Assembly: GCF_054482525.1 (NCBI RefSeq)
Contig: NZ_CM137006.1
DNA length: 64,000 bases
Strand: one strand, 5' to 3'
The position numbers and the translations under genes are program-made. The notes under the pieces are model-generated. The model saw only the letters and a program-made list of their open reading frames with translations, made no database searches and had not been told where the DNA came from. The first letter of the stretch is position 1; each line of letters opens with the position of its first letter. Shown piece by piece: positions 3,156 to 19,662 of this stretch.

Positions 3156-3785
3156 ATGACCCGCACACTCAAGCCGTTAATTCTTAACACCGGCGCACTG
3201 GCGCTAACATTAATCCTGATTTATACCGGCATTTCGGCCCATGACAAACTCACCTGGCTGATGGAAGTGACACCGGTGATTATTGTCGTGCCGCTACTGC
3301 TTGCCACCGCTAAACGTTATCCGTTAACGCCGCTGCTCTATACGCTCATTTTCTTTCACGCCATCATCCTGATGGTCGGCGGGCAATACACCTACGCGAA
3401 AGTCCCCGTTGGTTTTGAGGTGCAGGAATGGCTGGGGTTGAGCCGTAATCCGTATGACAAGCTGGGGCATTTTTTCCAGGGGCTGGTGCCTGCACTGGTG
3501 GCACGAGAGATCCTTGTGCGCGGGATGTACGTTCGCGGACGTAAAATGGTGGCGTTTCTGGTCTGCTGCGTGGCGCTGGCGATAAGCGCGATGTATGAAT
3601 TAATCGAGTGGTGGGCGGCGCTGGCAATGGGCCAGGGAGCGGATGATTTTCTCGGCACCCAGGGCGACCAGTGGGACACGCAATCCGATATGTTCTGCGC
3701 GCTGCTTGGCGCATTAACGACGGTGATATTCCTCGCTCGCTTTCATTGCCGCCAGCTACGGCGCTTTGGCTTGATAACCGGATAA
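3156..3785 (+). CDS. yjdF: Inner membrane protein YjdF, 209 aa
   Basis: ORF with multiple hydrophobic segments; position between fumB and melB. Confidence 0.8.
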   Translation: MTRTLKPLILNTGALALTLILIYTGISAHDKLTWLMEVTPVIIVVPLLLATAKRYPLTPLLYTLIFFHAIILMVGGQYTYAKVPVGFEVQEWLGLSRNPYDKLGHFFQGLVPALVAREILVRGMYVRGRKMVAFLVCCVALAISAMYELIEWWAALAMGQGADDFLGTQGDQWDTQSDMFCALLGALTTVIFLARFHCRQLRRFGLITG

Positions 3786-14470: not shown

Positions 14471-14573
14471 TTCCCCTTAATCCAGCAAACATAAAAGCCA
14501 ACCTTAAGAACTTAAGGTTGGCTTAATTTTGCTTTGCGAGCATATGCGCACTTTGTTCGATGGAAACACCGTG

Positions 14574-16882: not shown

Positions 16883-16891
16883 TTGAATCTG

Positions 16892-17983
16892 ATGCGTTTT
16901 CTGCGCCGACCAATATCGCTGCGCCAACGGCTGATATTGACCATCGGGGCCATTTTGTTGGTGTTTGAGCTGATCAGCGTCTTCTGGCTATGGCATGAAA
17001 GTACCGAGCAGATTCAGCTGTTTGAGCAGGCGCTACGCGACAATCGCAACAACGATCGCCACATCATGCGTGAGATCCGCGAGGCGGTCGCCAGCCTGAT
17101 CGTCCCCGGCGTCTTTATGGTCAGCCTGACGCTATTTATCTGCTATCAGGCGGTACGCCGCATCACCCGCCCGCTGGCGGAGCTGCAAAAAGAGCTGGAA
17201 GCGCGCACCGCCGACAATTTAACGCCTATTGCCATTCACAGTGCCACCCTCGAAATCGAAGCGGTGGTTTCGGCGTTAAACGATCTGGTCAGTCGCCTGA
17301 CCAACACGCTGGATAACGAAAGGTTGTTTACCGCTGACGTCGCGCATGAACTGCGAACGCCACTGGCGGGGGTGCGTTTGCATCTGGAACTGCTGGCGAA
17401 AACGCATCACATTGATGTAGCACCGTTAGTGGCACGGCTTGATCAGATGATGGAGAGTGTCTCCCAGCTACTGCAACTGGCGCGTGCCGGACAGTCATTT
17501 TCTTCCGGGAATTATCAACATGTAAAACTGCTGGAAGATGTCATTCTCCACTCGTATGACGAACTCAGTACCATGCTCGACCAGCGACAGCAAAACCTGC
17601 TATTGCCAGAGAGCGCCGCCGACATCACCGTTCAGGGTGATGCAACCCTGCTGCGGATGTTATTGCGAAACCTGGTAGAAAACGCCCATCGTTACAGCCC
17701 GCAAGGCAGCAACATTATGATTAAGCTGCAAGAAGATGGCGGAGCGGTCATGGCCGTTGAAGATGAAGGACCGGGTATTGATGAGAGTAAATGCGGGGAG
17801 TTGAGTAAAGCGTTTGTACGTATGGACAGCCGTTATGGCGGGATTGGTCTGGGGTTAAGTATTGTCAGCCGCATTACACAGTTGCATCACGGGCAGTTTT
17901 TCCTGCAAAACCGGCAAGAGACTTCTGGCACGCGGGCCTGGGTACGGCTGAAGAAAGATCAGTACGTGGCAAACCAGATATAA
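16892..17983 (+). CDS. basS: Sensor histidine kinase BasS (PmrB), 363 aa
   Basis: H-box ADVAHELRTPL and ATPase motifs; start taken at ATG 16892 (the listed ORF begins at an upstream TTG). Confidence 0.9.
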   Translation: MRFLRRPISLRQRLILTIGAILLVFELISVFWLWHESTEQIQLFEQALRDNRNNDRHIMREIREAVASLIVPGVFMVSLTLFICYQAVRRITRPLAELQKELEARTADNLTPIAIHSATLEIEAVVSALNDLVSRLTNTLDNERLFTADVAHELRTPLAGVRLHLELLAKTHHIDVAPLVARLDQMMESVSQLLQLARAGQSFSSGNYQHVKLLEDVILHSYDELSTMLDQRQQNLLLPESAADITVQGDATLLRMLLRNLVENAHRYSPQGSNIMIKLQEDGGAVMAVEDEGPGIDESKCGELSKAFVRMDSRYGGIGLGLSIVSRITQLHHGQFFLQNRQETSGTRAWVRLKKDQYVANQI

Positions 17984-18048
17984 AGAAAGCTGCTGACCAC
18001 CAGCACGCTGAACACGGTAGTTAAACTTTCATAAACACGGTTTTTCAT
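17959..18048 (-). CDS. pmrR: Small membrane peptide PmrR, 29 aa (MKNRVYESLTTVFSVLVVSSFLYIWFATY)
   Basis: Short ORF on minus strand with RBS ggagag upstream; I recognise the peptide as PmrR; its 3-prime end overlaps the basS 3-prime end on the opposite strand. Confidence 0.65.
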   Translation of the reverse strand: MKNRVYESLTTVFSVLVVSSFLYIWFATY

Positions 18049-18118
18049 TGCACTCTCCTCCGTTAACCTGGAGGAGAGTATGCGCGTCAGAGATTAAGTG
18101 AACCTTAAGAGTTCAATT

Positions 18119-18147
18119 GGCCTGATAAGACAGCGTCACATCAGGCC
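18119..18147. repeat. REP element (ggcctgataagacagcgtcacatcaggcc)
   Basis: Canonical REP palindrome between pmrR and proP. Confidence 0.75.
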
Positions 18148-18159
18148 ATCCGTTTCAGC

Positions 18160-19662
18160 TTATTCATCAATTCGCGGATGTTGCTGCACCAGGCGGGTAC
18201 GTTTCGCCTGCAAATCGGCAATCTCGTGGTCAATATCATCGATTTTCTGCTCGATATTATCGTAATGCTCGACGAGAATTTCCTTCGCTTCCTGTATATC
18301 TGACGCCGCCGGTGTCGCACCTTTCAACGGACGATTCGCCGTCTCTTTCATGGTTACGCCGGTGATTAAACCAACCACCGCCACTACCATCAGGTAATAG
18401 GCAGGCATCATCAGATTCTGCGAGCTTTCGACCAGCCAGGCCGCCAGTGTTGGCGTCAGACCGGCAACCAGCACCGAAATATTAAATGCCGCCGCCAGCG
18501 CGCTGTAACGGATATGCGTCGGGAACATCGCTGGCAAGGTAGAAGCCATAACGCCCGTAAAGCAGTTAAGGATCACCGCCAGCATCAGTAACCCGGCAAA
18601 AATCAGGCCGATGACGTTACTGTTAATCAGAATAAACGCCGGGATCGCCAACACAAACAGTGCAACACTACCAAGTAGCACAAACGGACGACGGCCAAAA
18701 CGGTCACTCAGCAAGCCCATCACCGGCTGGACAAACAGCATACCGATCATAATGGCGATAATAATCAGCACCCCGTGGTCTTCGGAGTAATGCAGGTTAT
18801 GCGACAAATAACTCGGCATATAGGTCAGCAACATGTAGTAAGTCACGTTGGTGGCAATTACCAGACCAATACATGTCAACAGGCTGCGCCAGTATTTAGT
18901 GGCAATCTCTTTAAACGAGACTTTCGGGCCATCCTGCAAACCTTCGCGGTCGCCCTGTTCCAGTTTATCAACATGCTGCTGGAACGCCGGAGTCTCTTCC
19001 AGCGCATGGCGCAGGTAAAGCCCGATAATCCCTAACGGCAGAGCAATAAAGAACGGAATACGCCAGCCCCAGTCGAGGAAGTTCGCTTCGCCGACAATGG
19101 TCGAAATTAACACCACCACGCCCGCACCCAGCACAAACCCGGCAATAGAACCGAAGTCCAGCCAGCTGCCCATAAATCCACGTTTACGGTCAGGGGAGTA
19201 TTCCGCAACAAATATCGACGCCCCGGTATATTCACCGCCGACCGAGAAACCTTGTGCCATCTTACAGATCAACAGCAGAATCGGTGCCCAAATACCAATC
19301 GTATCGTAGGACGGTATTAAGCCAATACAGAACGTACTGATCGACATAATCACAATAGTGATAGCGAGGATCTTCTGGCGACCATATTTATCGCCCAACA
19401 TACCAAAGAAGAGTCCACCAAGCGGTCGAATCAGAAAGGGAACGGAGAAAGTGGCAAGTGCAGCAACCATCTGCACGCTGGGGTCAGCCCCCGGGAAAAA
19501 AACTTTACCTAATGCGTAAGCAACAAAACCATAAACACCAAAATCAAACCATTCCATTGCATTACCCAGTGATGCTGCGGTAATGGCTTTACGCAGTTTA
19601 CCGTCATCAATAATAGTGACATCACGAAGGGTAATTGGTTTTACTTTTTTCCTTTTCAGCAT
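18160..19662 (-). CDS. proP: Proline/glycine betaine:H+ symporter ProP (MFS) with C-terminal coiled coil, 500 aa
   Basis: Translation from MLKRKKVKPITLRDVTIIDDGKLRK…; MFS topology; start chosen at internal ATG. Confidence 0.92.
   Translation of the reverse strand: MLKRKKVKPITLRDVTIIDDGKLRKAITAASLGNAMEWFDFGVYGFVAYALGKVFFPGADPSVQMVAALATFSVPFLIRPLGGLFFGMLGDKYGRQKILAITIVIMSISTFCIGLIPSYDTIGIWAPILLLICKMAQGFSVGGEYTGASIFVAEYSPDRKRGFMGSWLDFGSIAGFVLGAGVVVLISTIVGEANFLDWGWRIPFFIALPLGIIGLYLRHALEETPAFQQHVDKLEQGDREGLQDGPKVSFKEIATKYWRSLLTCIGLVIATNVTYYMLLTYMPSYLSHNLHYSEDHGVLIIIAIMIGMLFVQPVMGLLSDRFGRRPFVLLGSVALFVLAIPAFILINSNVIGLIFAGLLMLAVILNCFTGVMASTLPAMFPTHIRYSALAAAFNISVLVAGLTPTLAAWLVESSQNLMMPAYYLMVVAVVGLITGVTMKETANRPLKGATPAASDIQEAKEILVEHYDNIEQKIDDIDHEIADLQAKRTRLVQQHPRIDE

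Follow-up and report, generated by a model that had tools for sequence, protein, structure and literature searches.

A stretch of 64,000 nucleotides (the window, to which all positions refer) carries on its minus strand a very short reading frame that meets the sensor kinase gene basS (pmrB) tail to tail and shares its last codons with it. This raises the question of whether the reading frame is a gene, whether the overlap itself has a regulatory role, and what other features of the locus may control the synthesis of so small a product. An earlier note, made from the sequence, had named the gene pmrR and described its product as a membrane peptide. Translation of 17959..18048 on the minus strand, from the ATG start, gives the 29-residue peptide MKNRVYESLTTVFSVLVVSSFLYIWFATY*, in agreement with the list of open reading frames and with the peptide originally put forward. 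This peptide matches the NCBIfam equivalog model for PmrR, NF033224, over its whole length (model positions 1–29 of 29; 74.2 bits, E = 5.2e-21, cutoff 30) and is exactly the peptide of UniProt entry PMRR_ECOLI, while Pfam holds no family that matches it. Residues 9–27 (LTTVFSVLVVSSFLYIWFA) form a single hydrophobic transmembrane segment with a mean Kyte–Doolittle value of 1.94, and the entropy at codon positions 1, 2 and 3 of the pmrR frame (1.02, 0.64 and 1.36) follows the usual pattern of coding sequence. A chance reading frame was ruled out because of the model match, the identity to PMRR_ECOLI, this codon-position pattern and the presence of syntenic homologues at 56 of 80 loci (see below). 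Of 5,426 complete E. coli genomes, 5,412 carry the 701-nt region around pmrR with an identity of at least 95%; in these approximately 5,400 genomes PGAP labels its genes pmrB, 'LpxT activity modulator PmrR' and proP. The gene order of E. coli PCN033 (adiC, eptA, basR, pmrB, pmrR on the opposite strand, proP) is that of the window. The RefSeq annotation and published descriptions (PMC8129183, PMC8004244) agree with the gene name, the membrane character and, together with the coordinates of the reading frames, the convergent orientation and the overlap of 25 nt. At the level of the gene, the reading frame is the already annotated E. coli gene pmrR and nothing different; pmrR, its PmrA box, the 25-bp overlap with basS/pmrB and its status as a candidate excludon have all been published before and are recorded in RefSeq. 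The features of the locus are collected in Table 1.

Table 1. Position of features at the pmrR–basS locus of the window.
Feature	Position	Strand	Description and basis
basS/pmrB sensor kinase gene	16883..17983	+	366-codon ORF
pmrR 3' UTR antisense to basS	17859..17958	−	TRS 'Primary' 3' end at K-12 4332305, equivalent to 17859
Match to Rfam RF02052 (STnc630)	17952..18117	−	Spans the PmrA box, the hairpin and the whole pmrR ORF
pmrR coding sequence	17959..18048	−	29 codons and TGA (17961..17959); translation, PGAP, NF033224, codon-position pattern
Region common to the pmrR and basS coding sequences	17959..17983	both	25 nt, tail to tail
Published pmrR-sense RNA 3' ends	18047..18048	−	Read-through from proP ends here, 3–4 nt past the base of the hairpin
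11-bp leader hairpin	18051..18080	−	5' arm 18080..18070, loop 18069..18062, 3' arm 18061..18051
Shine–Dalgarno sequence GGAGGAGAG	18053..18061	−	Purine-rich; 4 nt upstream of the pmrR ATG
Predicted −10 element CATACT	18077..18082	−	Follows the PmrA box after 10 nt; xAxACT in the family consensus
PmrA/BasR box CTTAAGGTTCACTTAAT	18093..18109	−	Exact match to YTTAAK-N5-YTTAAK
Hairpin GGCCTGAT...ATCAGGCC, presumably a REP element	18119..18147	−	REP-like; just past the proP stop (TAA, 18162..18160); sequence and folds
Subclone DS86	outer end 18070		pmrR ORF and Shine–Dalgarno, without outer hairpin arm, −10 and PmrA box; MIC 0.5 (PMC8004244)
Subclone DS103	outer end 18087		Extended to include the complete hairpin and the −10 element; MIC 4 (PMC8004244)
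Subclone DS126	outer end 18109		Outermost base is the first of the PmrA box; MIC 16 (PMC8004244)

According to the literature, PmrR blocks LpxT and so leaves the lipid A 1-phosphate free for the addition of phosphoethanolamine by EptA, an action that raises resistance to polymyxin and lowers resistance to deoxycholate. In Salmonella enterica and E. coli it is the same membrane peptide and LpxT inhibitor, transcribed from a PmrA-box promoter at a site antisense to the end of pmrB/basS. The biochemistry of PmrR and LpxT in Salmonella is reportedly the work of Kato et al. (2012, Mol Cell). For E. coli there is genetic evidence for the inhibition of LpxT: in a PmrA-constitutive strain, deletion of the PmrA box of pmrR gives a polymyxin-sensitive and deoxycholate-resistant phenotype, and polymyxin resistance is restored by deletion of lpxT (PMC8129183). 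The peptide has also been detected by Ribo-RET, and PmrR-6xHis is located in the membrane fraction; a growth defect in low Mg2+ is complemented by pmrR in a manner that depends on the start codon (ATG to TAA), and overexpression of PmrR is harmful (PMC11429745). Since the growth effects of PmrR under low Mg2+ are independent of lpxT (PMC11429745), LpxT is possibly not its sole target, and PmrR in E. coli may have others. MgrB and MgtS, of the PhoQ/PmrB network, resemble PmrR in that they have fewer than 50 residues and a single transmembrane segment, are induced by the same stress network and exert their action through binding to a larger protein of the membrane (PMC11429745), but their sequences are unrelated to PmrR, and their targets and genomic arrangement differ.

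The extent to which the gene is conserved was determined from 80 loci with relatives of BasS, one per species, in which small reading frames on the minus strand by the basS stop codon were scanned and collected with an iterative HMM. A PmrR homologue of 28–33 residues (36–63 bits) was found at 56 of these loci and meets basS tail to tail at each of them. These loci belong to Escherichia, Citrobacter, Klebsiella, Raoultella, Kosakonia, Enterobacter, Kluyvera, Phytobacter, Trabulsiella, Pseudocitrobacter, Pluralibacter and Yokenella, to which are added Pantoea sp. A4 and several MAGs; within the 80-locus set no homologue lies beside basS in Pectobacterium, Rahnella, Rouxiella, Ewingella, Chimaeribacter or Edaphovirga. 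Residues F21 and W25 are invariant among the homologues, and a purine run resembling a Shine–Dalgarno sequence is retained at the 56 loci. The earlier note had named lack of conservation of the reading frame or its ribosome binding site as grounds for rejecting the gene; both are kept across Enterobacteriaceae. HMM matches of approximately 13 bits (MLQHAQNLEFEE...) were discarded as most likely derived from the C-terminus of the neighbouring uvrB product. When NF033224 was applied to the syntenic 30-residue peptides of Klebsiella (MQKINFREYLAVATALVIIVAFFHQWVLTF), Kosakonia, Kluyvera, Phytobacter and Enterobacter, it gave either no match or 19 bits, below its cutoff of 30, and in public records these peptides are hypothetical or unnamed. 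As judged by sequence and synteny, the PmrR family is probably wider than annotated, and the curated model misses the peptides of the Klebsiella group.

The overlap with basS has been reported in two papers of 2021 (PMC8129183, PMC8004244), the second of which likewise gives 25 bp. Its length differs considerably across genera, from −8 to +57 nt: it is 25 nt in Escherichia and one Trabulsiella species, 4 nt in Citrobacter and Raoultella, 22 nt in Klebsiella, 42 or 29 nt in some Kosakonia and 57 nt in Pseudocitrobacter, and at many other pmrR loci there is no overlap or a gap of 1–8 nt. Conservation of BasS extends to ...RAWV(R/K)(L/F); beyond this its tails vary in length and sequence, so that the length of the overlap changes as the basS stop codon drifts. 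In E. coli the last approximately eight codons (KDQYVANQI*) constitute this non-conserved tail, antisense to pmrR, and the residues QYVANQI are pmrR read backwards. What is conserved is the tight tail-to-tail abutment, present at all 56 pmrR loci. The 25-nt coding overlap is probably incidental, a by-product of tight packing and drift of the basS stop, and there is no support for a regulatory role of the overlap as such. We consider it very likely that pmrR, under activation by BasR/PmrA, encodes a 29-residue inner-membrane peptide and, jointly with this, that the coding overlap with basS arose in this way and is not a device.

The tightness of the abutment has the consequence that no room is left for a terminator between pmrR and basS. 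In order to place published RNA ends, K-12 coordinates were converted with the relation window position = 4350164 − K-12 coordinate, derived from pmrR at 4332116..4332205. A published pmrR-sense 3' end falls at 17859, which is 100 nt past the pmrR stop and 125 nt inside the basS coding sequence; the stem predicted before this end is not unusual (z = −0.45). With no terminator between the genes, pmrR RNA would run on for approximately 100 nt antisense to basS. The earlier note had proposed that the convergent overlap could couple the expression of the two genes. The pair might be a functional excludon, in which PmrA-driven transcription of pmrR into basS lowers basS expression through colliding RNA polymerases or through duplex cleavage by RNase III (or basS transcription lowers pmrR) and gives PmrAB a feedback loop at the RNA level. 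In keeping with such a loop, the pmrR-sense RNA overlaps the basS coding sequence by 125 nt, the abutment is kept at 56 of 56 loci with pmrR, the pair is listed among the convergent excludons of E. coli by ExcludonFinder (NAR 2025, PMC12288877) and DNA downstream of pmrB alters the measured level of pmrB RNA (PMC8004244). Against it, the length of the coding overlap is not conserved, with several genera having none and gaps reaching 8 nt. Published RNA-seq shows that pmrR is co-induced with eptA and basR on activation of BasR, so that the units rise together and not reciprocally. Moreover, induction of arnT is unaffected by deletion of the PmrA box in the pmrR promoter (PMC8129183). The pair thus shares with convergent excludons the arrangement of the genes and the overlap of their transcripts (PMC12288877), whereas classic excludons have mutually exclusive expression and here both partners are induced by the same activator. 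We regard a functional excludon as unlikely. Of the proposed coupling, the part that stands is that pmrR RNA continues for 100 nt or more beyond its stop, antisense to basS, in a pair included in ExcludonFinder; the variable overlap (−8 to +57 nt), the non-conserved BasS tail and the co-induction of the two units speak against the rest. A modest interference effect on basS is possible; any effect of antisense pairing or collision would be at most modest, since BasR switches on both units together. The conserved abutment in every genus that bears pmrR may nevertheless reflect some selection on convergent transcription.

We then consider the other end of the gene. Only two exact PmrA boxes occur in the 64-kb window, that of pmrR and one before eptA at 14511..14527, and the eptA promoter shares the 10-nt spacing between box and −10 element. 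The box is found 40–46 nt from the ATG, with no more than one mismatch, at all 56 pmrR loci, and columns A34, A36, C37 and T38 of alignment A1, which belong to the −10 hexamer, are invariant or nearly so. The boxes of PmrA-type regulators are expected to follow class II geometry, here about −40 to −24. Because of this placement of the box and the 10-nt gap to the −10 element, the transcription start is predicted near 18069, which is the first loop base of the leader hairpin described below. A scan for σ70 promoters called none at pmrR; a promoter that depends on an activator and has no −35 element would be expected to escape such a scan, and we do not take this as counter-evidence. The PmrA box of the pmrR promoter has been deleted experimentally, and the dependence of pmrR on PmrA is known from published work (PMC8129183). 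In the activated state, phospho-BasR would bind the box at 18109..18093, RNA polymerase would use CATACT (18082..18077) and transcription would start near 18069, giving a leader of approximately 21 nt with an exposed Shine–Dalgarno sequence.

The ribosome binding site had been described in the earlier note as a good one. A Shine–Dalgarno sequence is indeed present, but in any transcript that begins before the pmrR promoter it forms the 3' arm of a hairpin of 11 bp, stable at ΔG −19.4 kcal/mol (z = −4.3), in which it is wholly buried; the 5' arm comprises the 3' half of the −10 element and the discriminator. The covariation of this hairpin was assessed on alignment A1 (57 sequences), with controls in which the pairing partners were slid and with 500 shuffles. 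The helix is kept with differing arm sequences (CTCTCCTCC/GGAGGAGAG, CTATCCTCA/TGAGGATAG, CTCTCCTG/CAGGAGAG and CTGCCC.../...GGGCAG). Paired cells amount to 82.6%, compared with 34–49% in the slid controls, double-sided changes number 65 compared with 5–21, and the covariation score of 0.302 (0.06–0.12 in controls) was reached by none of the 500 shuffles. RNAalifold recovered only seven of the 12 pairs and its covariation term was weak, the count on the named structure being the more informative. In order to ask on which strand the structure is formed, we compared wobble pairs: on the nine core pairs there are 35 G·U against 10 A·C in the pmrR sense, the latter corresponding to G·U in the basS sense (binomial p = 2.5e-4, a value that is indicative only, as the sequences are related), while over all 12 pairs the test is a tie (46 to 50), the signal being confined to the core. 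The excess of G·U over A·C on the core pairs points to a hairpin that acts in RNA of pmrR polarity. As an intrinsic terminator it has the stem and lacks the U-tract (its tail is GCAAUGAAAAAC); the terminator scan made no call, and a T-run after the hairpin occurs in only one of the 56 loci (L011). A canonical terminator was ruled out on the missing U-tract. In some genera an extra terminator-like hairpin abuts the PmrA box, and the leader hairpin is still kept.

The whole of this region is also matched by an Rfam family, RF02052 (STnc630), which is labelled an enterobacterial sRNA. It could therefore be argued that a non-coding sRNA is the main product of the locus, the 29-codon reading frame being incidental, and the match is indeed of full length (model positions 1–166 of 166) and strong, its 181.8 bits lying well above the gathering score of 55. 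The consensus of the family, however, holds the PmrA box, which is promoter DNA, followed by the AUG, the entire reading frame and the UGA, and its structure line contains the same 11-bp hairpin. The reading frame has the codon-position pattern of coding sequence and a Ribo-RET signal, and start-codon-dependent complementation (PMC11429745) has already largely refuted a non-coding locus. In addition, the peptide is conserved in genera beyond the reach of the Rfam model, which among 16 loci detects those of Escherichia and Citrobacter only, with no match in 14 other genera. The matched stretch thus consists of a conserved, translated reading frame with promoter DNA, and a primarily non-coding sRNA is highly improbable. 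Given a consensus that includes promoter DNA, AUG, reading frame and UGA, the STnc630 'sRNA' family is the pmrR gene together with its promoter, in spite of the non-coding label. No mention of STnc630 was found in the literature searched.

The hairpin also folds in the basS sense, and a set of published subclones bears on the strand in which it may function. The outer ends of these subclones were placed in the window from their primers (PMC8004244), and the 'critical 3' region of pmrB' delimited by them coincides with the architecture of the pmrR promoter and the hairpin. The authors mention pmrR without mapping the PmrA box, the −10 element or the hairpin (PMC8004244). The hairpin might serve the opposite strand as a 3' stem-loop of the eptA-basRS mRNA, acting as a terminator or as a barrier to exonucleases, and this would account for the need of pmrB for more than 86 bp of downstream DNA: DS86, in which the hairpin is incomplete, confers no resistance and yields approximately 315-fold less 'pmrB' RNA than DS126, while DS103, in which it is complete, reaches an MIC of 4 (PMC8004244). 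The comparison is confounded, as the pmrR −10 element comes in with DS103 and the PmrA box with DS126. Furthermore, the bias towards G·U in the pmrR sense (35 to 10, p = 2.5e-4) and the RNA 3' ends mapped beside the hairpin on the pmrR strand are at odds with a function in basS mRNA, no U-tract follows the hairpin on the plus strand, and mRNA half-life is unchanged (PMC8004244). We therefore think it improbable that the hairpin serves the opposite strand, and no more probable that such a role explains the requirement for downstream DNA. The coincidence with the promoter suggests that the result reflects the function of the pmrR promoter or of the hairpin rather than an effect of the pmrB 3' UTR. 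The effect could be due to plasmid-borne peptide, to antisense RNA in a possibly non-strand-specific RT-PCR or to the basS-sense 3' stem-loop, and the approximately 315-fold difference in pmrB RNA could be an effect in cis.

A function in pmrR-sense RNA requires transcripts that enter the hairpin from upstream. In E. coli K-12, Term-seq places a 3' end at 4332116, which is the A of the pmrR ATG in a sequence context identical to that of the window, TRS records an 'Internal' 3' peak at 4332117, and SEnd-seq is stated to show that the upstream gene terminates inside pmrR (PMC10687069). Read-through RNA from the upstream gene therefore reaches the hairpin, as seen from the 3' ends of Term-seq and TRS together with the statement on SEnd-seq. 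A terminator-like site at 18005..17991 within the pmrR coding sequence, a candidate confined to Escherichia, was rejected as the site of the published termination, the mapped 3' ends lying at 18047/18048. Every locus that keeps the hairpin has a co-oriented gene upstream, either proP, uvrB or a gene of the Na+/H+ antiporter family; the sole divergent neighbour, an aminotransferase gene in Pantoea sp. A4 (L059), occurs at the sole locus without the hairpin, which is a single case. In silico, the probability that the Shine–Dalgarno sequence of E. coli is unpaired is 0.000 in read-through RNA and 0.295 in mRNA from its own promoter (with the predicted start), and over the 56 loci the corresponding values are 0.142 and 0.362. 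The BasR-initiated mRNA would lack the 5' arm, because its predicted start near 18069 lies in the loop.

From these results we tentatively propose, with rather less than even confidence, that the hairpin is a conserved insulator against read-through, in which the −10 element and discriminator of the promoter pair with the Shine–Dalgarno sequence so that PmrR is made only from its own promoter. Upstream transcripts (from proP in Escherichia and uvrB in most others) would form the hairpin, end there and stay untranslated, while transcripts initiated through BasR would start within the loop and escape. Extended, with the same reserve, to other genera, the proposal includes the same module, with a 30-residue peptide not annotated as PmrR by PGAP, in Klebsiella, Raoultella, Kosakonia, Kluyvera, Phytobacter, Trabulsiella and others. 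There is precedent in mobile elements for such an arrangement, as fold-back inhibition protects IS10 and IS50 from outside transcription. In IS200, one stem-loop terminates impinging transcripts and another occludes the ribosome binding site (as summarised in PMC3196728). Like these, pmrR has an anti-Shine–Dalgarno arm upstream of its own predicted start, so that only read-through RNA would bury the Shine–Dalgarno sequence and end there. It differs from them in being a chromosomal regulon gene and not a transposase gene, in that a single putative hairpin appears to serve both roles, and in that the 5' arm of this hairpin is the −10 element and discriminator of the promoter itself.

Overall, the comparative data on overlap length temper the reading of pmrR–basS as an excludon. 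If the proposed insulation against read-through is true, PmrR, a peptide that is harmful when mis-timed, would be licensed by its own promoter alone, which fits the harm reported on its overexpression (PMC11429745). Furthermore, the unannotated PmrR homologues of Klebsiella and its relatives, together with the hairpin that may sequester the Shine–Dalgarno sequence, bear on the regulation of polymyxin resistance in clinically important species.

An exact-match search for PmrA boxes (PmrA/BasR sites) returned only two in the 64 kb window, and these flank the eptA-basRS-pmrR module on both sides. Both share the same geometry: a 10-nt gap separates the box from a hexamer whose second base is A and whose sixth is T. 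The pmrB subclones of PMC8004244 (DS86, DS103 and DS126) differ in their downstream ends, which fall within the pmrR promoter elements and the hairpin; these elements were not mapped by the authors.

Coordinates of the features in the window and in the fetched basS-relative loci (L0xx, one per species)
Feature	Position	Strand	Remark
Exact PmrA box	14511..14527	+	
Exact PmrA box	18093..18109	-	
Rfam RF02052 'STnc630' match	17952..18117	-	182 bits
BasS C-terminal tail	17954..17983	+	
Terminator-like stem, then GCTTTCTTTA	17991..18005	-	within pmrR coding sequence
11-bp hairpin	18051..18080	-	pairs pmrR -10/discriminator with SD
REP-like hairpin GGCCTGAT...ATCAGGCC	18119..18147	-	directly 3' of proP stop codon
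DS86 end	18070		
DS103 end	18087		
DS126 end	18109		
PmrR homologue, L018	3550..3642	-	syntenic, 30 aa
PmrR homologue, L021	3568..3660	-	syntenic, 30 aa
PmrR homologue, L015	3578..3670	-	syntenic, 30 aa
PmrR homologue, L044	3569..3661	-	syntenic, 30 aa
PmrR homologue, L028	3561..3653	-	syntenic, 30 aa
Co-oriented ORF end, L009, L013, L017	~3553..3680		
Stretch of the pmrR locus, L059	3490..4035		upstream neighbour is a divergent class-III aminotransferase gene

The five loci tabulated and about 40 further ones carry a syntenic 30-aa PmrR homologue together with a PmrA box; Klebsiella, Raoultella, Kosakonia, Kluyvera, Phytobacter and Trabulsiella are among the genera represented. Databases label these peptides 'hypothetical' or leave them unnamed, and the NCBIfam PmrR model does not recognize the syntenic homologues of Klebsiella, Raoultella, Kosakonia and others. 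Since the RF02052 consensus corresponds to the pmrR promoter plus coding sequence, the curated sRNA family STnc630 appears to be a protein-coding gene.

Comparison of the BasS C-terminus with those of L007, L018, L016 and L040 showed that neither length nor sequence is conserved past ...RAWV(R/K)(L/F); the E. coli tail consists of pmrR codons read antisense. In three Enterobacteriaceae loci (L009, L013 and L017), the end of a co-oriented ORF lies no more than approximately 20-30 nt from the basS stop. Compared with the uvrB neighbours confirmed in other loci, this end looks like the UvrB C-terminus. The interval up to basS contains no pmrR, which suggests that the gene has been lost or is arranged differently.

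The base pairs of the 11-bp leader hairpin covary across more than a dozen genera, and their bias favours RNA of the pmrR sense. Published RNA 3' ends lie 3-4 nt after this hairpin; none of the mapped ends falls at the terminator-like stem within the coding sequence, which locus comparison confines to Escherichia. Among pmrR loci, L059 (Pantoea sp. A4) alone lacks the SD-burying hairpin, and it is the only one with a divergent aminotransferase gene upstream. In six loci (L015, L043, L045, L050, L053 and L061), a terminator-like hairpin of the upstream gene is situated approximately 50-60 nt 5' of the pmrR ATG, its 3' arm overlapping the first PmrA half-site (CTTAA); putative terminator and activator site have bases in common there. 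In E. coli, proP RNA evidently runs beyond the REP-like hairpin as far as the pmrR hairpin, which may act as an insulator that keeps proP or uvrB read-through off pmrR.
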